Below are positions 419 to 47,942 of a stretch of 56,797 nt of DNA, one piece after another. The first letter of the stretch is position 1. Each line of letters begins with the position of its first letter. The notes under the pieces were generated by a model, which saw nothing but the letters and a program-made list of their open reading frames with translations, was not told the DNA's origin and ran no database searches. Origin of the DNA: a virus (taxonomy: Duplodnaviria > Caudoviricetes); IMG/VR virus record IMGVR_UViG_3300045586_000026, positions 1 through 56,797 of that record; one strand, 5' to 3'. The position numbers and the translations under genes were made by a program.

Positions 419-493
419 ACTGCTATCGTCTATCGGTTAGGACACCAGGTTTTCATCCTGGTAAGCGGGGTTCGACTCCCCGTAGCAGTACCA
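419..493 (+). tRNA. tRNA-Glu(TTC)
   Basis: Acceptor ACTGCTA/TAGCAGT, anticodon arm CCAGG-TTTTCAT-CCTGG, GTTCGA T-loop, CCA. Confidence 0.95.
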
Positions 494-588
494 TATTAAA
501 GCACACTACTTGCCCGACTGCAAATGTCGTGGTAAACTACTAAAGAAACAGGTTCGAATCCTGGGGACTGGTAGTGTTCTTCAATATG
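491..588 (+). ncRNA. Family B structured element 1 (contains a T-arm-like hairpin)
   Basis: Terminal stem CATATTAAAGCACACTAC/GTAGTGTTCTTCAATATG enclosing CAGG-TTCGAAT-CCTG. Confidence 0.55.
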
Positions 589-597
589 TTAAATTTA

Positions 598-672
598 GGT
601 GCGTTCATATAATGGTCATTATCGCGGATTGTCTATCCGTAGACGGGAGTTCGATTCTCCCACGCATCGCCA
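598..672 (+). tRNA. tRNA-Asp(GTC)
   Basis: Cloverleaf, anticodon loop TTGTCTA, CCA. Confidence 0.95.
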
Positions 673-679
673 AGTTTTT

Positions 680-754
680 GGGGGATTCATATACTGGGTA
701 TTATGCCTGCCTTGCACGTAGGTCAAAAGAGTTCGATTCTCTTATCCTCCACCA
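680..754 (+). tRNA. tRNA-Ala(TGC)
   Basis: Cloverleaf, loop CTTGCAC, G3:U70 pair, CCA. Confidence 0.95.
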
Positions 755-761
755 GTTTTTC

Positions 762-835
762 GCGGGGTTCGTATAGTGGTAATACCTTAGCCTTCCAAGC
801 TAAAGCGAGGAGTTCGATTCTCCTACCCCGCTCCA
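762..835 (+). tRNA. tRNA-Gly(TCC)
   Basis: Cloverleaf, loop CTTCCAA, U discriminator, CCA. Confidence 0.95.
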
Positions 836-841
836 AGTTAT

Positions 842-920
842 CTGTGTGTAATGTCAGTCTGGTCAGACGGCCTGGTTTGGAACTAGGAGGCCGCAGGTTC
901 GAATCCTGCCACACAGACCA
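842..920 (+). tRNA. tRNA-Pro(TGG)
   Basis: Cloverleaf, loop TTTGGAA, CCA. Confidence 0.93.
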
Positions 921-977
921 AGAAACTCTCCCTTGCATGCGGAGTATAATGAGATAAGTAGTATGCAAACAAATTTA

Positions 978-1054
978 GCCCTTGTGACGGAATTGGTATA
1001 CGTACTGGTCTTAGAAACCAGGTTCTGGGAGTTCAAGTCTCCCCGAGGGCACCA
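978..1054 (+). tRNA. tRNA-Leu(TAG), short variable arm
   Basis: Loop CTTAGAA, acceptor GCCCTTG/CGAGGGC, CCA. Confidence 0.9.
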
Positions 1055-1060
1055 AACAAA

Positions 1061-1152
1061 GGAAAGTAATGCAGCGGGGTTGGTCCTGCGACCAGCCTTG
1101 AAAACTGGGTTCTCAGAAATGGGATGGGGTTCGACTCCTCTGCTTTCCGCCA
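1061..1152 (+). tRNA. tRNA-Ser(TGA)
   Basis: Loop CTTGAAA, long variable arm, G discriminator, CCA. Confidence 0.9.
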
Positions 1153-1157
1153 GATAT

Positions 1158-1233
1158 ATCGACGTAGCTCATCAGGTAGAGCACCGGACTGAAAATTCGG
1201 GTGTGGTTGGTTCGAGTCCAACCGTCGGTACCA
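1158..1233 (+). tRNA. tRNA-Phe(GAA)
   Basis: Loop CTGAAAA, cloverleaf, CCA. Confidence 0.93.
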
Positions 1234-1239
1234 ATCAAT

Positions 1240-1314
1240 AGCCTTATAGCTCAGAGGAAGAGCAATCGCTTGATAAGCGATAGGTCGACATTTCAAAATT
1301 GTCTAAGGCTACCA
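1240..1314 (+). tRNA. tRNA-Ile(GAT)
   Basis: Loop TTGATAA, cloverleaf, CCA. Confidence 0.92.
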
Positions 1315-1319
1315 ATTTT

Positions 1320-1379
1320 AGGATCAGTTCAGCAAAAACTTAAAACTTTCTCTTATTCAGAAACTAAAAGTTGATCCTG
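1320..1379 (+). ncRNA. Family A (Y-RNA-like) copy 1
   Basis: AGGATCA-GTTCAGCAA...TTGATCCTG terminal stem; internal TTTCT-CTTATTC-AGAAA hairpin. Confidence 0.75.
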
Positions 1380-1387
1380 TTTTATTT

Positions 1388-1472
1388 GGAGTAGAAGCAT
1401 CAATGGTGATGCAGTGGACTGTAAATCCGCCGCCTTCGGGCACGCCTGGTTCGATCCCAGGATACTCCACCA
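1388..1472 (+). tRNA. tRNA-Tyr(GTA)
   Basis: Loop CTGTAAA, variable arm, CCA. Confidence 0.92.
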
Positions 1473-1479
1473 ATTTTAT

Positions 1480-1555
1480 TCCCTAGTAGCTCAGAGGTAG
1501 TAGCAAACGACTGTTAATCGTTAGGTCACACGTTCGATCCGTGTCTGGGGAGCCA
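1480..1555 (+). tRNA. tRNA-Asn(GTT)
   Basis: Loop CTGTTAA, cloverleaf, GCCA. Confidence 0.93.
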
Positions 1556-1561
1556 ATTTAA

Positions 1562-1657
1562 CCACTGTAGACTTGGTTGTCCGAGTTTGCGCAGCTCGAG
1601 GAGACGGTTCGATTCCGTTCATGGACTTAGCGGGTTCGATTCCCGCACAGTGGGCCA
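1562..1657 (+). ncRNA. Atypical tRNA-like RNA with two T-arms (GCG anticodon)
   Basis: Acceptor CCACTGT/ACAGTGG plus GCCA; CGAGT-TTGCGCA-GCTCG; two GGTTCGATTCC arms. Confidence 0.7.
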
Positions 1658-1661
1658 GTTT

Positions 1662-1827
1662 TGTAAGTGTAGATGTTGAGAAAGCATGGCGTCGAAAACC
1701 ATGCGAATGAGTCCCACCGCAACGTGGCTAAACTAGTAAGCTCTGTTATCAACTGTTACTGCGTACCTCTAACCCTAACGTACACTGGGCGAAATGGTTC
1801 CGAATGAGTGAGGCGGAACTACTTACA
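1662..1827 (+). ncRNA. Unknown structured RNA
   Basis: Terminal stem TGTAAGT(G)TAG/CTACTTACA with several internal hairpins, between tRNA genes. Confidence 0.6.
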
Positions 1828-1837
1828 GATTCAATAT

Positions 1838-1912
1838 GGGGAAGAAACTTTGACGGTGAAGTCCTGCCTCTTAAGCAGAGAGAACCGAGTTCGAATCTCG
1901 GCATCCCCACCA
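1838..1912 (+). tRNA. tRNA-Lys(CTT)
   Basis: Loop CTCTTAA, T-arm CCGAG-TTCGAAT-CTCGG, CCA. Confidence 0.85.
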
Positions 1913-1914
1913 AG

Positions 1915-2056
1915 AATTAGTCGGATTAATTACCCGAGATAGTAGATAGTAGACGGTGTTGGCACCACCATCGTCTTTGCAGTGATACTGCGTCAGGGAG
2001 CCCGAAAGGGTAACTTGAGAAACACTGGGGTAAGAGTCCCAAGTTTGTGTCAGCAA
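1915..2056 (+). ncRNA. Unknown structured RNA
   Basis: GC-rich hairpins AGACGGTG/CATCGTCT, GCAGT-gat-ACTGC, CCC-GAAA-GGG inside the tRNA operon. Confidence 0.5.
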
Positions 2057-2061
2057 TTTTT

Positions 2062-2118
2062 AGGATACATTCAGCAAAATTAAAAATTTCACTGTAAATG
2101 AAAAACAAACGTATCCTG
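2062..2118 (+). ncRNA. Family A copy 2 (Tyr-like anticodon stem-loop)
   Basis: AGGATAC-ATTCAGCAA...GTATCCTG; TTTCA-CTGTAAA-TGAAA. Confidence 0.75.
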
Positions 2119-2126
2119 TTGAACAT

Positions 2127-2202
2127 GCGCCGTTAGTTATAATGGAGAATATACGAGGCTACGAACTTCGGGATGGTGGTTCGATTCCATCACGGCGCAC
2201 CA
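2127..2202 (+). tRNA. tRNA-Arg(ACG)
   Basis: Loop CTACGAA, cloverleaf, CCA. Confidence 0.93.
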
Positions 2203-2263
2203 AATAGATTGTACATTATAACTTTTGTATGATATAATTACTTTATAACACATAGGATATATT

Positions 2264-2425
2264 ATGCTTAAACCTTCGAAAACATTTAGAATCTGGAAAG
2301 AAACGAAACGTGCTATGGCAACTATCGTCGATCCAGTTCAGCGTAACATTTATAAGAATGCAATGATTCAGGCTCAGTTAACCTCTGAGTTGCCTCCAGT
2401 TCGCGATAAGAGCGACAAGAAGTAA
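2264..2425 (+). CDS. Small basic hypothetical protein (53 aa, not in ORF track)
   Basis: Own TGTACA/TATAAT promoter (~2210-2238), AGGA RBS, ORF MLKPSKTFRIWKETKR...DKSDKK. Confidence 0.7.
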   Translation: MLKPSKTFRIWKETKRAMATIVDPVQRNIYKNAMIQAQLTSELPPVRDKSDKK

Positions 2426-2432
2426 AGATTTT

Positions 2433-2488
2433 AGGATGCGTCCAGCAAGCAAAAAAATTCAACTTGTAATTGAAAAATAAGCATCCTG
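2433..2488 (+). ncRNA. Family A copy 3 (Thr-like anticodon stem-loop)
   Basis: AGGATGC-GTCCAGCAA...GCATCCTG; TTCAA-CTTGTAA-TTGAA. Confidence 0.75.
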
Positions 2489-2496
2489 TTGTATAT

Positions 2497-2575
2497 CGCG
2501 GAGTAGGGGAGTCTAGTCGTCCCCGCCAGTCTCATAAGCTGGAGATCGCAGGTGCGAATCCTGCCTCCGCAACCA
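2497..2575 (+). tRNA. tRNA-Met(CAT), initiator-like
   Basis: Loop CTCATAA, C1:A72 mismatch (CGCGGAG/CTCCGCA), CCA. Confidence 0.88.
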
Positions 2576-2579
2576 GTTT

Positions 2580-2645
2580 AGGATAGTTTCTGCACAAAAT
2601 ACAGAACACCAACTTTTACTTGACATGTTCGTCAACACTATCCTG
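2580..2645 (+). ncRNA. Family A copy 4
   Basis: AGGATAG-TTTCTGCAC...CTATCCTG; possible CAA-CTTTTAC-TTG loop. Confidence 0.7.
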
Positions 2646-2653
2646 TTGTATTT

Positions 2654-2729
2654 GCCCTTATAGCTCATTTGGTAGAGCAACCGCCTTGTAAGCGGTAGGT
2701 GGTCAGTTCGAAACCGACTGAGGGCACCA
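2654..2729 (+). tRNA. tRNA-Thr(TGT)
   Basis: Loop CTTGTAA, cloverleaf, CCA. Confidence 0.95.
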
Positions 2730-2797
2730 TATTAAAGCACATTCGATATGCTCACAGCATATAGAGACATATGAAACGTGAGTGTGCTCCAATATGG
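2727..2797 (+). ncRNA. Family B structured element 2
   Basis: CCATATTAAAGCACATTC...GAGTGTGCTCCAATATGG terminal stem. Confidence 0.55.
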
Positions 2798-2845
2798 TCA
2801 GTACTATCGACGGATAGTATCCATAATCGGGAGTCATGACCCGAT

Positions 2846-2923
2846 GAACTCGTAGTCTTCTAATGGTTAGGATGCTCTTACTGGGTGATACAGGTTCGAA
2901 TCCTGTCTACAATGAGTTCGCAA
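2846..2923 (+). ncRNA. Degenerate tRNA-like RNA with stunted anticodon arm
   Basis: GAACTC-GTAG/CTAC-aat-GAGTTC stem, TAATGGTTA D-loop, ACAGG-TTCGAAT-CCTGT T-arm, ends GCAA not CCA. Confidence 0.55.
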
Positions 2924-2937
2924 GTTTAAAAAGGTTT

Positions 2938-3036
2938 AGGATCAGTTCCGCAAACCCAACTCTTTAATTGTAAGCAATTTAGTATGCCTCTTGAGTTATA
3001 CTAGATTTTTTATACTTGAAATGTAAACTGATCCTG
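2938..3036 (+). ncRNA. Family A copy 5 (Ser-like anticodon stem-loop plus extra hairpins)
   Basis: AGGATCA-GTTCCGCAA...CTGATCCTG; TTTATA-CTTGAAA-TGTAAA. Confidence 0.72.
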
Positions 3037-3039
3037 CCT

Positions 3040-3114
3040 GGTTCCATAGCACAGCGGTAGTGCACCTCCTTCATACGGAGATGGTCGTTAGTTCGATTCT
3101 AACTGGAACCACCA
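3040..3114 (+). tRNA. tRNA-CAT (elongator Met or Ile2)
   Basis: Loop TTCATAC, cloverleaf, CCA. Confidence 0.9.
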
Positions 3115-3138
3115 ATAGTTTTAATATATAGTTTTATT

Positions 3139-3215
3139 CGGAATGTAGCGCAGCCTGGTAGCGCACCTCGTTTGGGACGAGGGGGTCCAAGGTTCGAATC
3201 CTTGTATTCCGACCA
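3139..3215 (+). tRNA. tRNA-Pro(TGG), second copy
   Basis: Loop TTTGGGA, host-like CGGAATGTAGCGCAGCCTGGTAGCGC. Confidence 0.95.
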
Positions 3216-3224
3216 TTTTTAATC

Positions 3225-3298
3225 GCTCTTTTAGTATAAAGGCATTACAATACATTGGTAATGTATAGACGCTGGATCGTTACCAGCAAGGAGCACCA
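3225..3298 (+). tRNA. tRNA-Thr(GGT)
   Basis: ATACA-TTGGTAA-TGTAT; non-canonical T-loop ATCGTTA; CCA. Confidence 0.85.
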
Positions 3299-3308
3299 AG
3301 GAGTAACT

Positions 3309-3515
3309 ATGAGTGATGGCGGTAAAGGGTCTAAGCCAAGACCATTTAGTGTAAGTGATATTGAATACGCAGACCGATGGGAAGCGATATTCCACAAAGA
3401 CAAGAAACCTGAATTGAGAGAAGTGGTTGAACATAGTAGTCACAAGATGTTGACTGCGGAAAATCACCTTCAAGCTCTAGCCGATGAGAATCAACGACTA
3501 GGTTTGTACGATTAA
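3309..3515 (+). CDS. Hypothetical protein
   Basis: AGGAG RBS before ATG 3309 (MSDGGKGSKPRP...); the upstream part of the track ORF overlaps a tRNA. Confidence 0.75.
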   Translation: MSDGGKGSKPRPFSVSDIEYADRWEAIFHKDKKPELREVVEHSSHKMLTAENHLQALADENQRLGLYD

Positions 3516-3554
3516 CATGGCTCAGTCCTCTACGTAAGTACGATTGAGTTCTCT

Positions 3555-3640
3555 GCGGGTGTGATGAAATTGGTAGTACATAGGAGACTTAAAATCTCCC
3601 GCCGCAAGGCGTGCCGGTTCGAGTCCGGCCACCCGCACCA
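3555..3640 (+). tRNA. tRNA-Leu(TAA)
   Basis: Loop CTTAAAA, long variable arm, CCA. Confidence 0.95.
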
Positions 3641-3645
3641 AATTT

Positions 3646-3762
3646 AGGATCAGTTCAGCAAACTTATATTTCAACCAGCGTTTTGTGGGTTCGAGTCCCA
3701 CCTTCTAAGTAATTGGAAGTAGTCAAATTGGTAAAGACAGCCGGCAATAAAAGTTGATCCTG
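3646..3762 (+). ncRNA. Family A copy 6: YrlA-like RNA with circularly permuted tRNA domain
   Basis: Family A stem enclosing T-arm (GTGGG-TTCGAGT-CCCAC), loop-closed acceptor stem (CTTCTA/TGGAAG), then D-arm (GTC-AAATTGGTAAA-GAC). Confidence 0.82.
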
Positions 3763-3770
3763 TTAGATAT

Positions 3771-3845
3771 ATCTCGATAGTGTAATTGGCAACACTCTGA
3801 TCTCCAAAATCAGCATTCTAGGTTCGAGTCCTAGTCGGGGTGCCA
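3771..3845 (+). tRNA. tRNA-Trp(CCA)
   Basis: Loop CTCCAAA, cloverleaf, GCCA. Confidence 0.9.
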
Positions 3846-3905
3846 AATAAGTCCTGGACACGCGGACTCTAAAACGAAGTGGATGTAAGTGGAATCCTTA
3901 CACCT

Positions 3906-3979
3906 GCGTGCTTAGTTTAATGGTAAAATGTTACGTTGCCAACGTTACGTCAGGAGTTCGATTCTCCTAGCCCGCACCA
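3906..3979 (+). tRNA. tRNA-Gly(GCC)
   Basis: Loop TTGCCAA, T-arm, CCA; some stem mismatches. Confidence 0.85.
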
Positions 3980-3990
3980 AAATATATTTT

Positions 3991-4019
3991 CAAAAGTCTT
4001 GTCATGAGACTTTTGTTTT
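3991..4019 (+). terminator. Intrinsic terminator of the tRNA operon
   Basis: CAAAAGTCTTG/ATGAGACTTTTG hairpin followed by T-tract. Confidence 0.7.
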
Positions 4020-4020
4020 A

Positions 4021-4028
4021 TATAAATA
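4021..4028 (+). promoter_or_regulatory. T4-type late promoter
   Basis: TATAAATA; also at 14588, 36431, 45255, 48389, 52327 and on the minus strand at 14273. Confidence 0.8.
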
Positions 4029-4211
4029 AATCTATCAAGGGAACTTGATGACGCTTACAGTGGCGAATCACTGTGGCAATGGTATGAACCTACGAATATA
4101 GCTCAAAGCTTGATCACAATCTGGCTTTGAATTGTAATTGTTAGTCTATACCTCTAGTAAAAACTGAGCAAACGCTGTTCCAGCTACGCTCACATTTAGA
4201 GGAAATCAAAA

Positions 4212-4766
4212 ATGGCTGATATGTTAACAACTGATCCGTTCTTCGCGCTTACATCACAAATCGGTGGAGTTCGTGAAAAGGTATCTGACTCTGTCTTTGA
4301 AAACTACAAACTTCAAGTAGCACAAACAAACGACATCAACAACCGCGCAATGCAGGTTGCTCTACACGATGCAAGCGAGCTATCTTCAATCAAGCAAGAA
4401 GTGTCAAACGGAACTCTACAGGCTATGCTTGCAGCTTCACGTACTGATGCTGCTATTGGTGCAACTGCTTCTGCAACGCAACGTACAATCTTCGAACAAG
4501 GCGAACTAACTCGTCGTTTAGTACAAGACTTGAATACCCAAAACCTAAACACCGCACTTATCAATACCAACACCGCACTTTCCGGTCTTGGTGGTCAGTA
4601 CGCTGGTCTTGGTCTTGCCTACGGCGGTGCTGTAGCTGCTTATCAAAGTGCTAATACTGTATCTTCAGTTAACGCATTAAATAGCGCTCTAGCTAGCAAT
4701 GGCATGATCAACACTGGTACCCTAAGCGGCGTGTCACAAGCTGCTACTCCAACTACAATCCGTTAA
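4212..4766 (+). CDS. Hypothetical late protein (Ala/Asn/Gln-rich, coat-like)
   Basis: 184 aa, GAGG RBS, highly expressed-type codon usage. Confidence 0.85.
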   Translation: MADMLTTDPFFALTSQIGGVREKVSDSVFENYKLQVAQTNDINNRAMQVALHDASELSSIKQEVSNGTLQAMLAASRTDAAIGATASATQRTIFEQGELTRRLVQDLNTQNLNTALINTNTALSGLGGQYAGLGLAYGGAVAAYQSANTVSSVNALNSALASNGMINTGTLSGVSQAATPTTIR

Positions 4767-4778
4767 TCGGAACTTGGT

Positions 4779-4949
4779 ATGTTTGGACGTAACTGGGGTT
4801 ACGGAGGCTATTATCCAAGAAGTTATCTAGCAGCTGGCATAGGGTTTCCCTATGGTGCTCTGCTTGGATACCCTTATTTTGGATACGGCTATCCAGGTTA
4901 TGGGTATGGCTACGGAGGCTACCGCACTTCGTACCTACCTTATTACTAA
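4779..4949 (+). CDS. Tyr/Gly/Pro-rich small protein (56 aa, not in ORF track)
   Basis: MFGRNWGYGGYYPRSYLAAGIGFPYGALLGYPYFGYGYPGYGYGYGGYRTSYLPYY. Confidence 0.75.
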   Translation: MFGRNWGYGGYYPRSYLAAGIGFPYGALLGYPYFGYGYPGYGYGYGGYRTSYLPYY

Positions 4950-5009
4950 AATGTAAATTAAACGGGCTGGCTCACGAGGCTGGCCCGTTTTCGTTTCAAG
5001 GAGAATGTT

Positions 5010-5201
5010 ATGATCGGATACCTATATCCATTTTATAGAAGTTATGTGCCTGCACCGTACCCAGTCTGGGGTTATGGTGGATACCCAATTGGAAACTTCG
5101 GCACAAATATCGTTGGTAGTGCAATCGCTAACAACAGTCTAATTAATACTGGCACAGCCGTTGGAGTCATCCAAACTGCCACGCCAACCGTCATCGGATA
5201 A
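5010..5201 (+). CDS. Tyr/Pro/Gly-rich small protein
   Basis: AAGGAG RBS; C-terminal motif shared with ORF 4212. Confidence 0.8.
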   Translation: MIGYLYPFYRSYVPAPYPVWGYGGYPIGNFGTNIVGSAIANNSLINTGTAVGVIQTATPTVIG

Positions 5202-5204
5202 ATC

Positions 5205-5966
5205 ATGTACAAGAAAATCACGCATCACATAGTCGAGGAACACTTCGACCACCCAGCAACACTTCCAAATGGAATGCTGACCGCCATGAATGGAGCACCA
5301 ATGCAAGCTCCGGTTGGATCCACCGCGCCAACTGAGGCGAGCTTTACTGCAACGTCTGGCGATCTACCACAGTACGTCATGACTGAGATGACGATGTTGT
5401 TCAGAATGGATGCGAGAACAGCTTGGTCCAAGTGGGTGTTCAGTCTCATGAACTACGCAGTTAGTTTGAATGGTGATCTACCCGGCACCGATCAAGTAAA
5501 GGGCCGTGTGCACAAGACCGCAATAGCGCTTGGCGAATTCATCATCCCATATTATGGATTGACCGCTGCAAATTCGTTGTCGACTGCGTTAATCGCGATC
5601 AATGACATTGGTATGCACTATGTTGAGGCTATGAAAGCTAAGAAATCACCTGAAGAGTTGGCAAAGATTGCAGCTGGATGGGATCCATATGTTGAAGATC
5701 TAGCGAAAGTTTTAAACGAGTTGAATCCAAACAATTGGCCTCACGCTCTTATCGAAGATATTGTAACCAACTTAGTTAAAGCATGGCAAGATCAATTGAC
5801 TGCTCGCGCTAAAGGTGACATCGTCGCCGACGAGATTGCGATTGATCGTATCAATAAGTTGGTGATTACTGGTTTACCTGACCACGTTAAGCATGGCTAT
5901 AGTAGCTTAGCTGACATCTTTAGTCGTGGCATCCTCGCGCAATTTCCAGCGATGTTTGCTGCGTAA
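5205..5966 (+). CDS. Helical-bundle protein resembling the Firmicutes family often labelled 'acetylglutamate kinase/glycosyltransferase' (LWxxHVxWTR family)
   Basis: Recognisable segments PYYG, LNELNPNNW, ARAKGDIVADE, C-terminal GILAQFP. Confidence 0.6.
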   Translation: MYKKITHHIVEEHFDHPATLPNGMLTAMNGAPMQAPVGSTAPTEASFTATSGDLPQYVMTEMTMLFRMDARTAWSKWVFSLMNYAVSLNGDLPGTDQVKGRVHKTAIALGEFIIPYYGLTAANSLSTALIAINDIGMHYVEAMKAKKSPEELAKIAAGWDPYVEDLAKVLNELNPNNWPHALIEDIVTNLVKAWQDQLTARAKGDIVADEIAIDRINKLVITGLPDHVKHGYSSLADIFSRGILAQFPAMFAA

Positions 5967-5969
5967 TAT

Positions 5970-6215
5970 ATGGCTCTAATTCATATCCCAGACTATCCAA
6001 AGAGTCTCGAGTCGACTGATCTTGAAGCGCACGTCGCGATATGTGCTGAGCGCTACAAGAAACTCGATGAGAACTCCGAGCGTATGGAAAAGAAGATAGA
6101 GCTTATGATTGAAACAAATAGAGAAAATAGGAAGATGTTCGTTGGTGCACTCGTAACGATAGCAACTGGCGTCATCTCTTATTTGCTCAGTAGTCTTATA
6201 CGTATGTATAGTTGA
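5970..6215 (+). CDS. Small coiled-coil plus C-terminal TM protein (holin/XhlA-like)
   Basis: LEAHVAICAERY motif, coiled coil, one hydrophobic helix. Confidence 0.6.
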   Translation: MALIHIPDYPKSLESTDLEAHVAICAERYKKLDENSERMEKKIELMIETNRENRKMFVGALVTIATGVISYLLSSLIRMYS

Positions 6216-6610
6216 GGTATATTATGATTAGTTTAGAAGAGTCTATAAAGAGATTGAAGTTGTTGAAGATGGCCCGCGATAAGCTTGGTGCTGAGTTGTT
6301 ACAAAAGCACAACGATTCATTTTTAAATTGGAAAAAAGAATGCGATGAAGCATGGGATAAAGACAAGAAGTTGTTGCCATACCATGTGCAGTCATATTAC
6401 CCAACTGAGAGTGAGATCGTCGCTAAAGCTGTTGAGCTATATGTCGCTACCGTCAACGCTGAAGTTAATGAAGATGAAAAGACAGAGGAACTCGTCGAAG
6501 AGATCAGTCCACAGACTATAGATGATTTTACACACGACAGCGAAGTTATCTCTATGGAGACCTTCAATAGAATAAAGAACAAAAATAAGAAAGATCCACC
6601 AGATGTCTAA
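6212..6610 (+). CDS. Hypothetical protein
   Basis: 132 aa ORF tightly packed in operon. Confidence 0.75.
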   Translation: MRYIMISLEESIKRLKLLKMARDKLGAELLQKHNDSFLNWKKECDEAWDKDKKLLPYHVQSYYPTESEIVAKAVELYVATVNAEVNEDEKTEELVEEISPQTIDDFTHDSEVISMETFNRIKNKNKKDPPDV

Positions 6611-8531: not shown

Positions 8532-8658
8532 TTTTGTTCTTTTGATAGATTTATTACACAAACGTATATATAGAAGACCACTGTAAAATAACAGTGTACA
8601 TTAATTCATACATGTGGTATAATTGATCTATCAAAACAACAAACTCATTGGAGTTTTG

Positions 8659-8862: not shown

Positions 8863-8918
8863 CAGTGTACATTAAATGGAAACTGTGGTATAATTAACCT
8901 AACAACGGAGGAATGAAT

Positions 8919-9532: not shown

Positions 9533-9578
9533 TTGTTAAGGTGTACATTAAATCGTATACCTGATACAATAGAGTTAT

Positions 9579-9841
9579 GGGATGAGTACAGCAGTTAAAA
9601 CTATTACGCTCAAAACGGACGCCGAACTGAGGAAACATCGTAAGGTGTAACAACAACGGCTAGGTTGGAAAAGACTAGAGACCCTATTAGGATCTCGACG
9701 TTGGTGCCGAATCACTACCTAGTTCACATTACATGTGATATGCCAATGAATTGGATACGCCGATAGACCGGATAGTCTATTAATTTCAGGCTGGGTATAA
9801 GAGCCTTGGTTAGAAAACCAAACTAACGAACCACCATCCCG
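9579..9841 (+). ncRNA. Family A copy 7: long multi-hairpin RNA
   Basis: GGGATG-AGTACAGCAG...CATCCCG enclosing about 8 short hairpins; starts just after a promoter at 9542-9570. Confidence 0.7.
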
Positions 9842-9849
9842 GTATTTTT

Positions 9850-9913
9850 AGATTGAATTCTGCAACATAAAAAAAATGGCTGTCTGCTAGGACTTTAAAC
9901 TAGTATCAATCTG
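9850..9913 (+). ncRNA. Family A copy 8
   Basis: AGATTGA-ATTCTGCAA...TCAATCTG; directly upstream of the DUF2828 gene. Confidence 0.7.
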
Positions 9914-9938: not shown

Positions 9939-11369
9939 ATGTCATCATTTGCTCAAGCCGTTCAAGGCCAATCCGCTCGTACCACTAACGGTATGAAGGC
10001 ACTCAAGTCTACCTCAGACGCATGTGTAGACCTATTCTTTAAGGTGGGTGCATCACGTGGTAAGAACATCACCAAGGATTTTGTCGCAGCTCTGGCTGAA
10101 GACCAAGACACCGCACTGCGTATCGCTCAATGGGCTCGTGACGCTCGTGGTGGTGCTGGTGAGCGTGAACTGTTCCGTAACATCCTAACCTACCTTGAAG
10201 GCACCAAGCCTGAACTGGCTCTTAAGCTGATGGCTAAGGTTCCAGAGATCGGACGTTGGGACGACCTGCTAGTGTTCAAGACTGCACCAATCAAGTCCAA
10301 GGCTTATGATATGTTGGGCGATGCCCTTCGTGCTAAGAATGGACTGGCTGCAAAGTGGACTCCTCGTAAGGGCGTTATCGCTCAAGAGATTCGTGAGCAC
10401 TTTGGTATGTCGCCTAAGTTCTATCGTAAGTCACTGGTTGAAATGACTAACGTTGTTGAGACCAACATGTGTGCTAAGGACTGGGACAACATCAACTTCT
10501 CCCATGTTCCATCGGTAGCTGCTGCTCGTTACAAGAAGGCATTCTCTCGTAACACTGAAACCTATGCTGCATACGTTGCTGCACTGGTTAAGGGTGAGGA
10601 TCCAAAGGTGAAGGTTAACGCCGGCGCCGTGTATCCATACGACGTGCTGAAGGGTTGTATCAACTCTTACGGTCGTGCTGCTTACAACAGCGATGAGAAG
10701 GCTGTGATCGTTAAGCAATGGGATGCACTGGAGAACTTCATCGGCGATGCTAATGTATTGGCGATGGTGGATGTATCCGGTTCCATGAGTTGTAAGGCTG
10801 GTGGAACTGCTTCAAAGAGCGAGACCACCTGTATGGAGGTTGCTATCTCCTTGGGATTGTATGTAGCTGATAAGAACAAGGGTAAGTTCAAGGATACGTT
10901 CCTGACCTTCTCGGGTTCGCCAGAACTGCTACACTTGAAGGGCGATGTGCTGCAGAAGATCGATCAAATGTCCAAGTCCAAGTGGGCTATGAACACCGAC
11001 CTAGTGAAGGCGTTCGAGAAGATCCTTCGTGTCGCTAAGGAAGGTAACGTAGCTCAAGAGGAAATGCCTGAGATGCTGTTGATCATGTCAGACATGCAGT
11101 TTGACCAGTGTGCTCGTTTCGACGATAGCGCAATGAAGATGATCGAACGTAAGTTTGAAGATGCAGGGTACGAACTTCCAAAGATCGTGTTCTGGAACAT
11201 CAGCGCTGCCGACAACGTGCCAGTGAAGTACGACACTCGTGGAGTAGCATTGGTATCAGGGTTCAGCCCTGCTATCATGAAAGCGGTACTGTCTGCGGAC
11301 ACTACTCAATTCACGCCTGAGTCAATCATGCGTAAAGCTATCGATATCCCACGATACGATCTGGCCTAA
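9939..11369 (+). CDS. DUF2828-family protein (TROVE/Ro60-like helical region plus vWA/MIDAS domain)
   Basis: TTNG...VDLFF, ARDARGGAGER, GRWDDLL, AAKWTPR; MIDAS DVSGSM, NTD, SDMQFD, IVFWN, SGFS. Confidence 0.88.
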   Translation: MSSFAQAVQGQSARTTNGMKALKSTSDACVDLFFKVGASRGKNITKDFVAALAEDQDTALRIAQWARDARGGAGERELFRNILTYLEGTKPELALKLMAKVPEIGRWDDLLVFKTAPIKSKAYDMLGDALRAKNGLAAKWTPRKGVIAQEIREHFGMSPKFYRKSLVEMTNVVETNMCAKDWDNINFSHVPSVAAARYKKAFSRNTETYAAYVAALVKGEDPKVKVNAGAVYPYDVLKGCINSYGRAAYNSDEKAVIVKQWDALENFIGDANVLAMVDVSGSMSCKAGGTASKSETTCMEVAISLGLYVADKNKGKFKDTFLTFSGSPELLHLKGDVLQKIDQMSKSKWAMNTDLVKAFEKILRVAKEGNVAQEEMPEMLLIMSDMQFDQCARFDDSAMKMIERKFEDAGYELPKIVFWNISAADNVPVKYDTRGVALVSGFSPAIMKAVLSADTTQFTPESIMRKAIDIPRYDLA

Positions 11370-11371
11370 AC

Positions 11372-11394
11372 AAAAGGACCTTCGGGTCCTTTTT
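11372..11394 (+). terminator. Intrinsic terminator (CUUCGG loop)
   Basis: AAAAGGACC-TTCG-GGTCCTTTTT; a near-identical one lies at 21217-21237. Confidence 0.9.
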
Positions 11395-13531: not shown

Positions 13532-14022
13532 TAAAATCCCCTGTTAACTATTATGTGAAATGTGCTCCATATGACTGGTATTAATATTGATAGCGCACCA
13601 ATGAAATATAATGTATACATAATTATTTCAGCCATCGTCTCACGGTCTCTTTGTTTCTTATCTGCGATCGCCTTCTCTGCTGCGTTGCGTTCCTTCGTCA
13701 TACGGGTACGCTCTGCCATCATCTCTTCCCATACAGGAGCGTTGCCACTCCAGAATAGGATGTCCTTCAATTCTTTTTCATGGTCGCGTAGAGCCTTAGA
13801 CGCCATCGCAATCTCAAGTGCTTGAGCACTGATCTGAGCGTCACTCTTACCAATGTTGTCCATCTTCATCTTTGTCGATGCGATGTGGACGGCGTCAGCA
13901 TTCTGATAGAATGAACTGAACTCTTTGTACAATCCGTTGATGTCTTTACCAAGTGCCATCGCAGCCTTGATACCTTTCACCGCGCCTTGAGCTAAAGCGA
14001 ATGCTGTGAATGGATCGATCAT
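13531..14022 (-). CDS. Membrane-anchored coiled-coil protein
   Basis: MIDPFTAFALAQGAVKGIK N-terminus, C-terminal TM. Confidence 0.8.
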   Translation of the reverse strand: MIDPFTAFALAQGAVKGIKAAMALGKDINGLYKEFSSFYQNADAVHIASTKMKMDNIGKSDAQISAQALEIAMASKALRDHEKELKDILFWSGNAPVWEEMMAERTRMTKERNAAEKAIADKKQRDRETMAEIIMYTLYFIGALSILIPVIWSTFHIIVNRGF

Positions 14023-14623: not shown

Positions 14624-17600
14624 ATGGCAATATCAAAAAAATTATCGCAATTAGCCAGTTTAACAACAGTTAACGGCACTGCTGTTACCATTGCCGGAAC
14701 TCTAAATGTTCCACTCGCCGATAGTCCAACGTTTACTGGAACTGTATCAGGCGTGACTAAGGCGATGGTGGGTCTTCCAAATGTAGAAGACAAGAATTCA
14801 TCGACTATACGTAGTGAGTTAAGTCATAGCAACGTATCAACTGCGTTGGGATTCACTCCGTATAACGCTACTAATCCCAATGGTTATACCACCAACGTTG
14901 GTACGCTCACTGCAGTCACAGCAACTGGACCTATTGCATCGACAGGTGGTACGACTCCAGTCATCAGTATGCCAGCTGCGACTACTGCAGTTGATGGTCA
15001 CCTTACAGCTGCCGACTGGACGATCTTCAACAATAAACAAGCTGCTGGTACATATGCTACCGGAACAGGTAGCGCCGCTGGTACGAATACCGGCGATAAC
15101 GCGGTCAACTCGCTATATTCTGGTTTAGTAACTAACGCTACTCACACCGGTGATGTGACTGGTAGCACTGCACTAACACTTGCGACTGTCAATACTAACG
15201 TTGGTCAATTTGGTTCTACCACGGCAATCCCAGTCGTTACAGTCAACGGTAAGGGATTGATCACTGCGATATCCACCACATCGATAACTGTACCTACAGC
15301 GGTGAGTCAATTGAGTAATGACTCTAGTTTTGCTACCACGACATACGTCGGTACCGCAATAGCAAATCTGGTCGCTTCATCACCAGCAGCATTGGATACT
15401 CTAAATGAACTGGCTGCAGCGCTTGGCAATGATGCTAGCTTCGCTGCCACGACTGCAACGAACCTAGGCCTTAAGGCTCTAAAGACAACCACGATTAGTG
15501 CTGGAGCTGGATTGACCGGCGGCGGTGATCTGGGCGCTGACAGAACGCTTGCATTAGCTGCATCGGGTGTGACTGCTGGAACTTATAACAACGTCACTGT
15601 CGATACGTATGGACGTGCTACATCTGGTTCTAACGTAGCGTACATTACTGGGTACACTGAAGTAGATACGTTGGCGACTGTGACAGCACGAGGTTCGCAA
15701 GCTAGTGCAAGTATTACAATTGGTTCTAATGGAACTTACGCAGCTGGTTCTATTTACTCTGATTCCAATTGGGGTATGTTATTCAGAGCTAGACAAGCTT
15801 CTCCAGCTAGTAAAGAGTTCATGTGGTCTACAAGTACAGACACAAACTTAATGACTCTTTCGACGGCTGGTGCACTTAATGCCATTGGCGCGATCACTGG
15901 CTCTAATTTGTCAGGCACAAACACTGGTGATAATCCAGGTGTTACATCAGTCGCTGGCGTTACACCAATCGTATCATCTGGTGGTACTACACCTTCAATA
16001 TCACATGCTACGTCTGGCGCGACGGCTGGTACATATAATAACGTCACCGTTGATACGTTTGGTCATGTCACCAGTGGTTCTAATACAGCGTACATTACTG
16101 GGTATAGCGAAACGGATACATTAGCGACTGTTACAGCTCGTGGAGCCACTACATCGACTGCGTCTACATTCAGTGGTGGCATCACTGGTGCTATTAATGG
16201 TATGCCTAACGACGGTAATGGACTTAGTGGTATGGGCGTATCCACGACATGGGATGCTAGACCTCAAGGCGTTTATGATCGATATTCTTTAAACTGGCAC
16301 ACTGGCATATCATTGAGTGGGTATCCTGGGTATGGTGGTGTTCGTTTATACGCTTCTGGATACCCTTCTATAACTACTTCAACATTGCGTTTAGAAGCGT
16401 CCGATGCTGTTTACACTTATGGTGTATTGTATAACAATGGTAATACCGTACTGCACGCCGCTAACTACAATTCATACTCACCAACGCTAACAGGTGGCGG
16501 AGCGTCAGGTACTTGGGGTATCAATATTACTGGAAGCGCTGCCTCAGCTAGCACCTCTACAAGTGCTAATTGGTCTACATATTCTCAAGTTCAAGATACT
16601 CGCGCTGCACCGGTGTTGCCTAATCAGTATGCCAGTCATCGCACAACATATGAGTTTACAGACCAAATTATTGGCGGTTGGCACTCTGCTATTACAACGG
16701 TGGGATGGGATAGCGGAAGTTACGCAGCTTGGCAGATCATTGGCGGTGCTACAAGTTCTACACATGAAAATTGGTATTTGCGCAGTGGCATAGCCTCATC
16801 CTGGAATCCTCTTCGTACGATCTTACATTCTGGCAACTACAATTCATATTCGCCAACGCTAACCGGTGGAGGAGCGTCAGGCACTTGGGGTATTAATATT
16901 ACTGGAAGTGCCGGTTCTATACCTTGGGCGAATGTAACTGGTGGTGTAAGAACAAATTATGACTTAGGGTTTCAAGCACCAAGTAGCAGCTATGCCGGTT
17001 TTTCTTTTTCTAAAAGTGCTAGCGCTTCAGGCGCATCAGACGCTGGTTATCTTTTAATTCGTGGTACATCAGATAATTTTATTCCATATACCGCAGAAGG
17101 TATCACACTGGTTTCTGATGCGAATAGTTTGAATTTATTTGCTCGTGGAAGTAGCTTAGTCTCCGGCGGTAATGCTTGGGTGCGTATGGGTACGGGTACT
17201 GAAGAAACTTTCCGTTTGATGGGTAATTACTCGTACTCATTAAATTCGTCAAGAGCACCTATCTTCTACGACAGTGACAACACTGCATATTACGTAGATG
17301 CTGCCGGCGAGTCTAGACTAAATTCACTTAGAATATTTGGTGCAGCTAATTGGGATGCTATCACTCTTTCAACTGATGGCGCTAATGGTTATATTCAAGG
17401 GTTAGGCGATGAAACTGGCCTACACATACGATCAGAATACGGCAACGTATATCTTGCTGATAATCGTGGCGATGTTCGTATGCCAATGTTTTACGATGTT
17501 AACGACACTGCATACTATGTAGATCCTAATAGCGGTTCAAATCTTTCTAGTCTGACTGTTGTCAATACTATAACTGGTAGTATCACTGGCACCGCAGCTA

Positions 17601-20600
17601 GTGAAACGCTGGCGACAGTTACTGGACGCGGTGCTAGTACATCGGCTGCAATTTCGTTAAGTGGAACGTTAAGTTTTGCTCAACCAGTTGGACTATCTTT
17701 TGCTAATGGACAGTATATTAAAGATAACGGCGGCGGCGGTTTAGCAATTTATAGCGGTGCTGCTATAAATCTTACTGGCGCCACATCAGTAACTGGTGCA
17801 CTAACAGTTAGCACTACAGTTCAAACAACAGGAAAAGTAGTTATAGGTGGTACTTTTGCGACTACTGGATACAATGGACCTACTGGTGCAAGACTAATGT
17901 TTAGTGGAGCTGACACTGATGCTGAAAGTCATTATTTCATCGGAACAAACCTAGAAAACTATGGTGGTAACTATAACAAATTAGACATACGCTGGCACAC
18001 TGGTATTCGAATGGGTGCTCGACCAAATTATGGTGGTATTCGTTTCTATGATAGCGAGGATTTAGGAACACAGATTTTTGCTATTGGTAAAGATGGGTCG
18101 TACGCTCAGGCAAACCATAGTATGCGTGCACCGATATTCTATGATCATGATGACACTACATACTATGGAGACTTTGCTAGCACTTCTAATCTTCTTGGGC
18201 TGACTGTCACTAATACTATAACTGGTAGCGTTACTGGCACTGCTACTGAACTCTTATCTAAATATCCGTATAATACAAATGTAATTTCGGATGCAAATAC
18301 TGCTTTTACTCTATCGCCGGGAGTGGGTTCTACTACAGTAGCAATGCACGCCTCGCACGGATTGTTTGGAGGATATGCTACAACGCTCACAATGTCTGGA
18401 TATGAGCGATACGGCGCATATCAAATTTCTGGCAATTATAATGCAACAACATCTGCGCTGGCCATGCGCAATTATAATCAAACTGCTGGAGGATGGACTT
18501 CCTGGGTACCCCTTCTTTCAAGCGCAAACTACAATTCATATTCGCCAACATTAACTGGTGGTGGAGCTTCTGGCACTTGGGGTATTAATATCACAGGCAG
18601 TGCTGCAACTGCAACTGACAGCACGAAAGTAGCAAAGACCGGCGATACAATGACTGGCGCGTTAAATATTAGTGCTTCACCAAGTGGAAGAACATTATCT
18701 TTAGGCGGGGATCAGCTAGATCGAGTGATTGACGATTCAGCTCGTTCGAGTCTGGTGATAAACGCAGCGTACTATCCACACTTATACATTAATGCGACAT
18801 CTAACGCATCTAATACTAATCATGGACCAGTTTTCTCAATGTCTGGAGTATTATCGGCAGGTGGGTATAGAAGATGGGGTATGGGTATTGCTAATACTGA
18901 CCCGGATTGTTTCAGTTGGGGTTATTACGATAATAACGTAAATCCTCATTATGGTGTCGGTGGCGTATTTGGTTATACTGGTACTAATTCGAAGATGTGG
19001 CTAAACACTGGTGGTTCTTTGATGACTACTGGTGATATGCGTGCACCAATCTTCTATGATAGCAATGACACTACATACTATGGAGACTTTGCTAGCACTT
19101 CTAATCTATATAATTTGCAAATAACTGGCGCTAGCAACAAGTACTTGTATATTAATCCAGGCAACGGTTACGAAGCAATGGTTAGATACAATGGTGGTGC
19201 TGGTAGTGGATGGTATGCAGGAAAACGAGTTGCCGATCAGTTAGTTAGTCCTTCAGACTTTCACTTTTATTCAGAAGGTGCAGGTAGAACTGTTGGTGGT
19301 ATAACTGCAGCTGGGGCGATAGTCGCGTATGGCTCTGTAGATTCTCCTAAATTTTATAGTACTAATCGTTGGGGCTCTGCTAACTTATCTGACTTATCTA
19401 GTGCTCCATTTGAAGGTGGTGATTTTAGTGCTGGCACAACAGCACAATACGTGCCACTGACACATCAGTCTGCTGTATATAATTCTGGTTATCGCACACA
19501 CGTCAGTACTGGTACATATAAAGATGCTAATGGATGGGGCGCCGGTTGGTACATGGCGATTGGTGGCAGCGATAGTTATCCAACTGAAGCGTTCCAGTTA
19601 AGACACGGTGGCGCAATTAGACATACGAATGGTTATGTTACTATTGAAGGAGATACACGATCACCATTATTCTATGATAGTAACGACACTGCGTATTATT
19701 TAGACGCAGCTGGTACATCTGTATTCAATCGTATAAGCACCGTTCGCACGAATAACTTTTTGTACATGGATAACAACTATGGTCATTCCATTGTTGGAGC
19801 ATACTCTGCGAGTCGCTATCAGGGTGTGTTTGCGATGGGCGATGCATATAAACTTCCAGCCGATGGTACTACAACTGGTAACTTATATGGCTTAGCATGG
19901 AGTCATCCTAATGCAGGTGGTGTTGCCGCTAACTTGAACACTCACGGCTTGCTAGCAATGGAAAACGGTACTTGGCTAGCGTCGTTATGTGGCAGTACTC
20001 GTGCTCGTGACGACATGCGTGCACCGATCTTCTACGATAACAATGACACTGCTTATTATGTAGATCCTAATGCTACTACTAGAATTAGAAAGACTAATTT
20101 AATTGCATCTGGCTCAGGATGGGACGATGGTTTAAACTTATACTCATCAGACGCGACCAATAGATGGAACTTTTTAGTAGATGATGGCGCAGCAGATTCT
20201 TTACGAATTGCGTACAATAACTCTGAAGCATTAACTATTAATACTTCTAGAAACGTAATAGCAGCTGTTGATATTCGTGCACCGATCTTCTACGACAGTG
20301 AAGACACTGGTTATTATTTGAGTCCTAACAGCGAAAGTAATTTAAACAAACTTACATATGCTGCTCAACAACGTTTCAGTGTGAGCTACAGAGCACCTGG
20401 TCGCAGTTCTAATACAAGTGATCAATTCTATTGGACTAACACAGTGGGCTGGGCTCAAGAGCAGGGCAACTGGAGTAATTATTGGAAATATGGATTTGGT
20501 GGATTTGACTGTTGGGGAACTAACACGGACCATCCACAAGGCACCGCATATATTCACGCACAGGGTATTCAATCTGGTATGCACGCCGCAAATGCCGACG

Positions 20601-39801: not shown

Positions 39802-39872
39802 TGTAGTACATCTAACGGTGTACATTAATTCGTCATTATGTTATAATTGGTCCATAGACAAAAAGGATCGTG

Positions 39873-47534: not shown

Positions 47535-47570
47535 TTGTACTTTAATTCGTAATTGTGGTATAATAAACTA

Positions 47571-47925: not shown

Positions 47926-47942
47926 ATTAACTTGGAGAATTT

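Follow-up and report, generated by a model that had tools for sequence, protein, structure and literature searches.

The 56,797-nucleotide (nt) stretch of viral DNA analysed here over its full length (IMG/VR record IMGVR_UViG_3300045586_000026, referred to below as the window) encodes, within a phage tRNA cluster, an RNA element of 116 bases (positions 3646-3761, + strand) in which a circularly permuted tRNA body is enclosed by the two strands of a terminal helix, the handle. We are highly confident that this observation is real and that the element is a member of a family of RNAs sharing the handle. The family is apparently undescribed, widespread among phages and encoded beside a Ro60-shaped protein, which carries the Pfam domain DUF2828 and in the window is the product of the open reading frame (ORF) at 9939-11369. 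The element is probably a divergent Y RNA, the handle of which would bind the Ro-like protein while the enclosed module, the cargo, would display a tRNA elbow. The window itself is a virus fragment of 56.8 kb, estimated to be 32% complete; relatives of the phage are 165-171 kb.

All parts of the element lie on the + strand. The handle is formed by AGGATCA (AGGAUCA in RNA; 3646-3652) and TGATCCT (UGAUCCU; 3755-3761), which pair over 7 bp and are followed by G3762. Its 5' strand leads into a 9-nt bulge, GTTCAGCAA (RNA: GUUCAGCAA; 3653-3661), which contains a conserved CAGCAA (3656-3661). In minimum-energy folds a second helix is stacked on the handle, with ACTT (ACUU; 3662-3665) pairing with AAGT (3751-3754), the latter being included in an A-rich 3' segment (CAAUAAAAGU; 3745-3754). 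The cargo begins with CCAGC (3675-3679; tRNA positions 39-43) and a variable loop of 5 nt, GTTTT (GUUUU; 3680-3684), followed by the T arm GTGGG-TTCGAGT-CCCAC (GUGGG-UUCGAGU-CCCAC; 3685-3701) and by an acceptor-stem analogue, CTTCTAA-GTAA-TTGGAAG (3702-3719), which has 7 bp, one of them G-U. Then come TA (U8-A9; 3720-3721), the D arm GTCA-AATTGGTAA-AGAC (loop AAUUGGUAA in RNA; 3722-3738), A26 at 3739 and finally GCCGG (3740-3744; tRNA positions 27-31). CCAGC and GCCGG represent the 3' and 5' strands of an anticodon-stem analogue. They are connected solely via the handle, 29 nt upstream and 17 nt downstream, and there is no anticodon loop.

By reading the sequence in tRNA numbering, we found the core nucleotides U8, A14, G18, G19, A21, G53, U54, U55, C56, A58 and C61 all in place, and U48 of the variable loop can form a Levitt pair with A15. 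The acceptor stem is capped by GUAA, a GNRA tetraloop (3709-3712), and has neither a free 3' end nor CCA. Since both a 3' end and an anticodon loop are missing, the element cannot be charged or decode, and ARAGORN, run on the window, called no tRNA at 3646-3761. The initial annotation had given the order of parts as handle, CCAGC, variable loop, T arm, acceptor stem, D arm, GCCGG and handle, and each part was found where it had been placed. The acceptor stem had also been described as closed by a loop; the closed stem is present, with a length of 7 bp rather than 6 and a GUAA tetraloop as its cap.

Independent support for this arrangement comes from a covariance model of the long form of the family, R1. 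Its alignment contains eight long members and excludes the window copy; seven of the eight come from related contigs, the other from Escherichia phage Bas63. Pairs of the anticodon hairpin were omitted from the R1 structure, because MAFFT misaligned those columns, as well as the D stem of the window copy. In the alignment, 98.4% of the cells in the handle, T, acceptor and D helices pair, compared with 79.9% in shuffles and 36-44% with slid partners. Compensatory change was detected at 15 of 24 pairs, and none of 500 shuffles reached the observed values. For individual stems of the relatives, compensatory changes affect 3 of 5 pairs in the T stem and 5 of 7 in the acceptor stem (100% of cells pair in both), and 2 of 4 in the D stem. 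Searched against 1.02 Mb, R1 finds 3646-3761 from end to end (model positions 1-115 of 115; 58.1 bits, E 9.5e-10), and its alignment puts every arm where the initial annotation had drawn it. There are 206 R1 matches at E<=1, all on the strand of the Ro-like gene (+). The weakest of them include local matches of tandem-tRNA junctions to model positions 46-101, which were disregarded.

Family counts given below refer to the window plus 60 related contigs gathered via the neighbouring DUF2828 protein (individual loci are numbered with the prefix L). The 5' motif of the handle occurs 111 times, always on the + strand, and in 105 cases a 3' partner follows no more than 270 nt away. Helix positions 6 and 7, which are variable, are both paired in 80 of 84 unique members, with all four Watson-Crick pair types represented; with shuffled partners the mean is 16 and the maximum 30. 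This count was made without the filter that forces positions 6 and 7 to pair. At least two of the four exceptions, and probably the other two as well, reflect a wrong 3' end chosen by the script. Within the bulge, C11, G13, C14 and A15 are each identical in 81 of the 83 unique members, and 73 have A12 and 74 have A16. On the 3' side, A is found at positions -9 to -13 from the end in 50 to 69 of the 83. Handle helices of the family include G-U pairs, which fits RNA rather than DNA repeats. The family is defined by a terminal helix of 6-9 bp, by YCAGCAA beginning some 10 nt from the 5' end and by A-rich sequence ahead of the 3' helix strand, and the 3646-3761 element has all three.

The cargo between the handle strands ranges from 25 to about 200 nt. 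Among the 46 unique short members, 32 contain a stem of 4 bp or more topped by a 7-nt loop in which the second nucleotide is U and the sixth a purine, whereas shuffled interiors of the same members yield 2.6 such hairpins on average and 9 at most. The loops are CUUGUAA (11 members), CUGUUAA (5), CUUUUAA (4), CUGGAAA (3) and others. In the long members the cargo is a permuted tRNA body; most long relatives are opened where the D stem meets the anticodon stem, with a complete anticodon hairpin ahead of the variable loop and T arm. The window copy belongs to a subtype without the anticodon hairpin, in which two strands make up the anticodon-stem analogue. The same subtype is also present 23 nt upstream of a DUF2828-type gene in about twenty contigs, and its two-strand helix varies on both strands among relatives (CCCC/GGGG, ACCGA/TTGGT and ACAGC/GCCGT, from an alignment read by eye). 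Thus, the proposal that the tRNA is opened at the anticodon loop suits the window copy with its two-strand analogue, but does not extend to most long relatives.

Eight RNAs in the window share the helix, YCAGCAA and the A-rich 3' strand. The pattern TTAGGATNNNTYCNGCA occurs six times in the window, each time on the + strand (0.11 occurrences expected), and all six are matched downstream by ATCCTG. The member at 1320-1378 (+) has a handle and a helix 2 identical to those of the 3646-3761 copy, and its cargo is a short hairpin with the 7-nt loop CUUAUUC. Two further members hold anticodon-like loops: 2062-2117 (+), with cargo UUUCA-CUGUAAA-UGAAA and GUA at the anticodon position, and 2433-2487 (+), with cargo UUCAA-CUUGUAA-UUGAA and UGU at the anticodon position. 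It had been suggested that the 3646-3761 copy complements its sisters, offering an elbow without an anticodon loop where they offer an anticodon loop without an elbow, and these three short copies with their 7-nt anticodon-like loops bear this out. The member at 2580-2644 (+) has the motif CUGCA and an unclassified cargo, and that at 2938-3035 (+) the motif CCGCA and a long irregular hairpin (fold z-score -4.9). The remaining two stand before the Ro-like ORF. One, at 9579-9840 (+), has a large cargo, a covarying handle (GGGAUG/CAUCCC) and the motif CAGCAG; the other, at 9850-9912 (+), has the handle AGAUUGA/UCAAUCU and the motif CUGCAA and lies 27 nt upstream of the ORF. Relatives of 9579-9840 with GGGATGA handles occupy the equivalent place. 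Members with large cargos (about 160-260 nt) are situated at the leader start in relatives too (L022 9628-9845, L037 1141-1348 and L053 9705-9940) and have common internal blocks such as GGAGGACCACCGNAAGGUGU. Those of the window and L022 matched no Rfam family at the gathering level.

The product of ORF 9939-11369 (+; 476 aa) is a Ro60-like protein that matches Pfam DUF2828 and DUF7788 as well as PHROG 850 ('RNA-binding protein'). A phmmer search against PDB sequences returned nothing significant; therefore, a comparison of folds was required. An AlphaFold2 model based on 20 sequences (pLDDT 79, pTM 0.75) gave 13 PDB matches at E<=0.001 in Foldseek, all of them to Ro60/TROVE proteins: Xenopus and human Ro60, Deinococcus Rsr and Ro60 of Thermus phage phiLo. 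These matches cover essentially the full length (487-567 columns), with TM values of 0.35-0.58 and 12-16% identity; matches further down correspond to vWA/MIDAS domains. The MIDAS motif of the vWA domain (D278-x-S280-x-S282, plus T353 and D385) is invariant in the 20 sequences. According to the model, the protein has the Ro60 fold, that is, a helical-repeat ring followed by a C-terminal vWA domain with MIDAS. Homologs of the DUF2828 protein are present in 711 of 50,697 phage records, some of them annotated as 'Ro-like RNA binding protein'.

RNAs of the family are linked to this gene. In the window, a single unit comprises, in order, a promoter-like site (9542-9570), the members at 9579-9840 (starting about 9 nt after that site and ending 99 nt ahead of the ORF) and 9850-9912, the ORF, and a terminator-like hairpin at 11372-11393. 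In 53 contigs the sequence upstream of the DUF2828 gene extends for 450 nt or more; 49 of them have between one and four same-strand members in the 500 nt preceding the gene, whereas control scans of the opposite strand and of the gene interior were positive for 2 of 53 and 6 of 53 contigs, respectively. The upstream members represent at least a dozen distinct handle sequences, every one perfectly complementary. In five genomes that are 96-100% complete, all 11 short-form matches are on the strand of the gene and fall within the locus-covered stretch around it, compared with none for the reversed pattern. The initial annotation had interpreted the element in terms of a Ro protein and its Y RNA. 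A Ro60-fold ORF is indeed encoded on the same strand and has two family RNAs in its leader, with the qualification that the partner is of the DUF2828 type and not Pfam TROVE.

The linkage extends to phage isolates. Of the 8 isolates sampled, 7 have RNAs with a helix and ACAGCAA in unannotated gaps next to the DUF2828 gene or not far from it; in these seven the helix sequences are unrelated while ACAGCAA is constant. The 7-mer scan used for the isolates is loose and, in L063-L068, also picks up ORF-internal and minus-strand sites (all 10 in the Vibrio locus are of this kind), and only intergenic + strand cases with ACAGCAA, or in two cases CCAGCAA or CACAGCAA, were counted as members. Bas63 (a Felixounavirus of Escherichia, identical with JohannRWettstein; L062) has four members, at L062 7754-7822, 7921-7980, 8376-8445 and 8463-8590, in the tRNA cluster just after bas63_0130, with the handle AGACC.../...GGUCU, and one of them is a permuted tRNA. 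The minus-strand coding sequences bas63_0137 and bas63_0138 overlap members at L062 8376-8445 and 8463-8590 and are probably mis-calls over RNA genes. Mycobacteriophage Kingsolomon has three members in an unannotated gap after a 'Ro-like' gene, the middle one being a permuted tRNA that scores 65 bits with R1 and only 37.9 bits with Rfam YrlA. Synechococcus phage BUCT-ZZ01 (L061) has three in a row before the DUF2828 gene and others elsewhere, Listeria phage LMLPA3 three and Campylobacter phage CP8 two before the gene, a Staphylococcus phage three after it, and Sinorhizobium phage phiM12 at least three upstream of it, two of which are permuted tRNAs.

A few loci contain RNAs with the opposite circular permutation: L026 8646-8775, L033 about 5384-5510, L020 about 4270-4400, L023 1-90 (at a contig end) and L061 about 13581-13700 and 13711-13827. 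In each of them the acceptor stem is open, with NCCA at its end, and after the D arm an extra arm is inserted, made up in turn of an A-rich strand, the handle with a GUAA tetraloop as its cap, and YUCUGCAA. Next come an anticodon-like hairpin and the T arm, and the 3' strand of the acceptor is last. None of these RNAs was called by ARAGORN; one scores 50.7 bits with the Rfam tRNA model, and in several the 5' strand of the T stem contains a single bulged base.

How might the element work? In canonical Ro60 complexes the terminal stem of a Y RNA, with a conserved motif in its 5' strand, binds the outside of the ring, and the remainder of the RNA brings in or excludes other factors (PMC4201824). 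By analogy, and given the linkage to the gene, we consider it likely that the handle binds the DUF2828 protein. The 7-bp helix with the bulged GUUCAGCAA opposite the A-rich 3' strand would be the docking site for the DUF2828 ring, and the CAGCAA bulge the proposed point of protein contact. The cargo, a circularly permuted body derived from tRNA-Leu, is expected to fold into a tRNA elbow. The element is flanked by tRNA-Leu(UAA) at 3555-3640 and tRNA-Trp at 3771-3845, with the handle starting 5 nt past the former and ending 9 nt ahead of the latter, and a terminator-like hairpin (3991-4015) follows the last tRNA in the block. Because the element stands between two tRNAs in one transcription unit, RNase P and tRNA 3'-end nucleases could release it from the operon transcript with no dedicated processing signal. 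Once on the ring, the tRNA-shaped cargo might tether the ring to proteins that recognise the tRNA shape, or might occupy such proteins as a decoy. Candidate targets include processing, repair and modification enzymes, nucleases of the polynucleotide phosphorylase (PNPase) type and host defence nucleases directed at tRNAs.

A number of observations weigh against a divergent Y RNA bound by the Ro-like protein. The fold energy of the element is not significant (z-score -1.7 to -1.8; 8-10 of 200 shuffles are as stable), and the minimum-energy fold omits the 3-bp D stem, a weak stem of three Watson-Crick pairs plus A.A at 13:22. The anticodon-stem analogue forms 4 of 5 pairs, with one C.A mismatch. 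Positions 24-84 of the 114 in the Rfam YrlA model (RF02553) align to 3678-3741 at 23.2 bits, far below the 69-bit gathering cut-off, there is no CGAA anywhere in 3641-3770, and the YrlA motif GNCGAA is missing. Pfam TROVE (PF05731) has no match in ORF 9939-11369 or elsewhere in the window, while control genomes were matched. The element lies 6.2 kb upstream of the Ro-like gene, within the same tRNA/RNA region, and in Vibrio phage 1.081.O no convincing member was found within 3 kb of the DUF2828 gene. The closest relative of the window, L001, has flanks that are 93-97% identical and lacks precisely the element (window 3642-3773 corresponds to about 6 nt there, L001 3191-3198); the element is therefore dispensable or recent. 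BLAST of 3641-3770 against 63 loci yielded fragments of the handle or T arm only and no ortholog among the fetched loci, so the element's own cargo is without direct covariation support. Metatranscriptome contigs from two runs of one study match 3520-3719 at 99.5% identity, and those from a second study match 3258-3786 at about 91%. They demonstrate presence only, as such libraries can contain DNA; the four RNA runs consist of contigs in which ends, strand and level are unreadable and uncovered parts carry no meaning. Finally, the role of a decoy or tether is deduced purely from anatomy.

Three other explanations were weighed against the Y RNA reading. The handle could serve processing or stability, for example as a site at which RNase III, RNase E or a phage nuclease punctuates the tRNA operon, or it could dock a different protein, for instance the phage RNA ligase; in that case the RNAs would act as spacers or would have other partners, and their closeness to DUF2828 would reflect nothing beyond a shared operon. 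The transcription units do contain members mixed with tRNAs, the window encodes an RNA ligase, the contact between the handle and DUF2828 is deduced, and the element is 6.2 kb from the gene. However, a bare helix needs no invariant CAGCAA bulge, yet the bulge persists in phages of Actinobacteria, Firmicutes, Campylobacter and Proteobacteria while the helix changes freely. Likewise, a spacer has no need for covarying T, acceptor and D arms, and phages with few nearby tRNAs (Kingsolomon and the Staphylococcus phage) still have the RNAs adjoining the DUF2828 gene. We consider this explanation unlikely.

Very much less probable is that the element is genomic debris or a small mobile DNA element with no RNA function, either a scar of tandem-tRNA recombination or an element resembling a miniature inverted-repeat transposable element (MITE), with the handle as terminal inverted repeats. 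Exact presence or absence between two close relatives and the 7-bp inverted repeat at the ends would be in line with a mobile element, and junctions of tandem tRNAs can mimic the T-before-D order and did give weak local R1 matches. The element, however, matches R1 end to end, and its acceptor strands pair over 7 bp and are GNRA-capped. In addition, all family members are on one strand, their helix positions covary with G-U pairs included, the family is limited to the tRNA/Ro region in complete genomes, and the design is kept across distant phages. Permuted tRNA genes, which occur in red algae and some archaea, suggest yet another possibility, namely that the transcript is cut in the acceptor loop and rejoined into a conventional tRNA that can be aminoacylated. 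Here too the 3' half precedes the 5' half, the module resembles a phage tRNA-Leu, the phage encodes an RNA ligase, and CCA-ended relatives of the opposite permutation exist in other contigs. Nevertheless, such an outcome is extremely improbable: an anticodon loop is missing, the handle is the sole connection between CCAGC and GCCGG, the acceptor is capped by a 4-nt GNRA loop with no CCA or discriminator context, and the flanks are a conserved handle that also encloses cargos other than tRNA.

Some clues to the origin of the element come from comparisons with individual loci. Over 22 nt of the T arm plus the 3' strand of the acceptor, the element is identical to a 77-nt phage tRNA-Leu(CAA) of contig L020, the D loop of which is likewise AAUUGGUA. 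Considering this identity, and because the handle and helix 2 are the same as in 1320-1378, a tRNA-Leu-like body was presumably placed into a pre-existing handle. L001 has a member at 2204-2324, and the scan found none such in the window. The set of handle RNAs changes quickly between near-identical phages.

If the Y RNA reading is correct, the sister RNAs that display anticodon stem-loops on the same handle imply that the phage would field a panel of tRNA parts on one platform. We offer the view of this panel as decoys or tethers tentatively. Deletion of Bas63 gp130 is reported to sensitise the phage to the Ppl defence system, and the authors of that preprint guess that some 'tRNAs' near gp130 might be Y RNAs (10.1101/2024.10.10.617714). 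In our comparison, Bas63 gp130 is 38% identical to the DUF2828 protein of the window. A role in conflict over tRNAs is plausible, since it is suggested jointly by the anticodon-loop mimics, by the RNA ligase and phosphoesterase of the window and by the Ppl phenotype of Bas63 gp130. Known anticodon nucleases target Lys, Tyr, Asn and related tRNAs, and this overlaps the loop types seen in the sister RNAs. In its broadest form the idea is speculative: DUF2828 and the helix-ACAGCAA RNAs might constitute a widespread phage ribonucleoprotein system, a ring with swappable tRNA parts that bait, block or redirect host enzymes attacking or processing tRNAs, and this could be the mechanism behind the anti-defence phenotype of Bas63 gp130. 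The swappable parts would perhaps comprise elbows, mimics of the anticodon stem-loops of Thr, Asn, Lys, Ser and Tyr tRNAs, and larger folds, and some phages might also load CCA-ended tRNAs that bear the handle as an extra arm.

Databases label DUF2828 homologs only as 'RNA-binding' or 'Ro-like', and our literature searches found no RNA partner of DUF2828 proteins. The element and its relatives provide a concrete candidate partner, which comes with a simple sequence signature, a covariance model and a tractable system (Bas63 in E. coli K-12). This makes testable what the ligand of the phage Ro-like protein is, whether tRNA-shaped Y RNAs act as decoys or tethers, and how Bas63 gp130 counters Ppl. 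The family also accounts for many unannotated gaps in phage tRNA clusters, together with some doubtful small ORFs drawn across them. Moreover, the occurrence of both circular permutations of one design, with either the handle or the acceptor at the termini, could reveal how the extra arm joins the tRNA core. Literature searches returned no description of the handle-ACAGCAA family, with the proviso that the supplementary list of Chen et al. 2014 (22 phages) may include some mycobacteriophage members as YrlA.

As for the surroundings of the element, ARAGORN identified 22 tRNA genes in the window, the majority within 419-3979. Five promoter-like sites of one design (250-278, 2210-2238, 8595-8623, 8866-8894 and 9542-9570, all +) consist of GTGTACATTAAAT, a spacer and TG-n-TAtAAT, with TGTACA-17-TATAAT and an extended -10 in common; they stand at the heads of tRNA/RNA blocks and of the unit of the Ro-like gene. 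Four tRNA-like matches came from Rfam alone, with no ARAGORN call: 1061-1148 to the tRNA-Sec model (33.9 bits, under its cut-off), and 1388-1469, 1838-1909 and 2849-2914 to the tRNA model (33.6, 39.5 and 26.7 bits). These may be odd tRNAs or additional tRNA-derived RNAs. Sub-threshold matches to Dicty_Class_I_RNA at 2063-2118 (33 bits) and 2434-2488 (21 bits) fall on family members and were taken as chance similarity of a stem with an A-rich loop. Megablast of 3300-6300 against isolated phages matched solely the tRNA-Leu segment (85-87% identity), and no close genome was found. A permuted transfer-messenger RNA (tmRNA) of the two-piece type, with the tag peptide ANDTLYALAA, is encoded at 47517-47926; Synechococcus phage BUCT-ZZ01 likewise has a permuted tmRNA (L061 7737-8137).

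The proteins of the window include gp32, PhoH, an RNA ligase and a metallophosphoesterase. The ligase (39870-40904; PF09414 and a PHA02142 OB domain) and the calcineurin-like phosphoesterase (42416-43315) could form a pair for healing and sealing RNA ends. In Listeria phage LMLPA3 (L064), the DUF2828 gene lies within 1.4 kb of a gene for an RtcB-type ligase and 0.6 kb from a phosphohydrolase gene. A tail-fibre-like protein of 2173 aa (14624-21145) ends in a C-terminal Peptidase_S74 intramolecular chaperone domain.

Several known systems resemble the one described here. The Y-like RNAs Yrl1 and Yrl2 of Thermus phage phiLo are also encoded just upstream of a phage gene with the Ro60 fold (PMC12135203), and structures of phiLo Ro60 (9kop and 9l5y) are among the best structural matches to the window protein. 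According to the same account, phiLo Ro60 binds two phage Yrl RNAs and host PNPase, dampening PNPase activity. In contrast to our RNAs, Yrl1 and Yrl2 were picked by a CGAA motif and have a stem-bulge-stem form, and the available part of that account reports no tRNA-like module (PMC12135203); the two proteins are only 15-16% identical in Foldseek alignments. Metazoan and Deinococcus Y RNAs with Ro60/Rsr have in common with the element a terminal stem that docks on the Ro ring and a variable module that recruits factors, PNPase in the case of the Deinococcus Y RNA (PMC4201824). Binding motif, protein subfamily and cargo repertoire set them apart from it. Permuted tRNA genes and two-piece tmRNA, too, encode tRNA parts in permuted order, but these give a functional acceptor end, whereas the element has a capped acceptor and no anticodon loop.

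The closest parallel is YrlA. YrlA carries a tRNA-like domain, with the T arm before the D arm and a closed acceptor stem, inside a terminal stem, and GNCGAA(N)G near the 5' end is its likely contact with Rsr (Chen et al. 2014, PMC4201824). Further marks of YrlA are binding by Ro60/Rsr, modifications of the tRNA type and recognition by tRNA enzymes. In the initial annotation the element was described as having YrlA architecture with an unfamiliar handle, and an Rfam search was proposed as one check. The YrlA model, the sole Rfam family aligned to the element beyond the T arm, aligns to precisely the T/acceptor/D core (E 0.27 when 10 kb were searched and 0.0035 for 130 nt). Those model positions that represent the terminal stem are unaligned, and at 23.2 bits the match to the core stays below the 69-bit cut-off; both this score and the missing GNCGAA agree with the handle being unfamiliar. 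At the gathering level, Rfam found tRNA and tmRNA only, and no YrlA, in the window and eight related loci. A YrlA is also recognised by lying less than 4 kb from a TROVE Ro60 ortholog on the same strand; the element is on the same strand, 6.2 kb away, and the Ro60-fold protein has no PF05731 match.

In both RNAs the ends pair into a stem whose 5' strand bears a conserved motif, the interior is a tRNA-like domain with tRNA core nucleotides that is ordered T arm, closed acceptor-like stem and D arm, an A-rich run precedes the 3' strand of the terminal helix (also in the Rfam consensus), and the RNA is encoded on the strand of the gene for a Ro60-fold protein. On the other hand, the motif is YCAGCAA here and GNCGAA(N)G in YrlA, and even the mycobacteriophage member stays well short of the YrlA cut-off. 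The presumed partner is DUF2828 and not Pfam TROVE. The richest phages have eight or more copies with interchangeable cargos spread through the tRNA array, and most long members keep a true anticodon hairpin (5 bp, 7 nt) where YrlA has a 'V' stem-loop. Taken together, the element works like YrlA, yet by the Rfam threshold and the defining 5' motif it is not a member of that family, and its presumed partner belongs to a different Ro-like subfamily.

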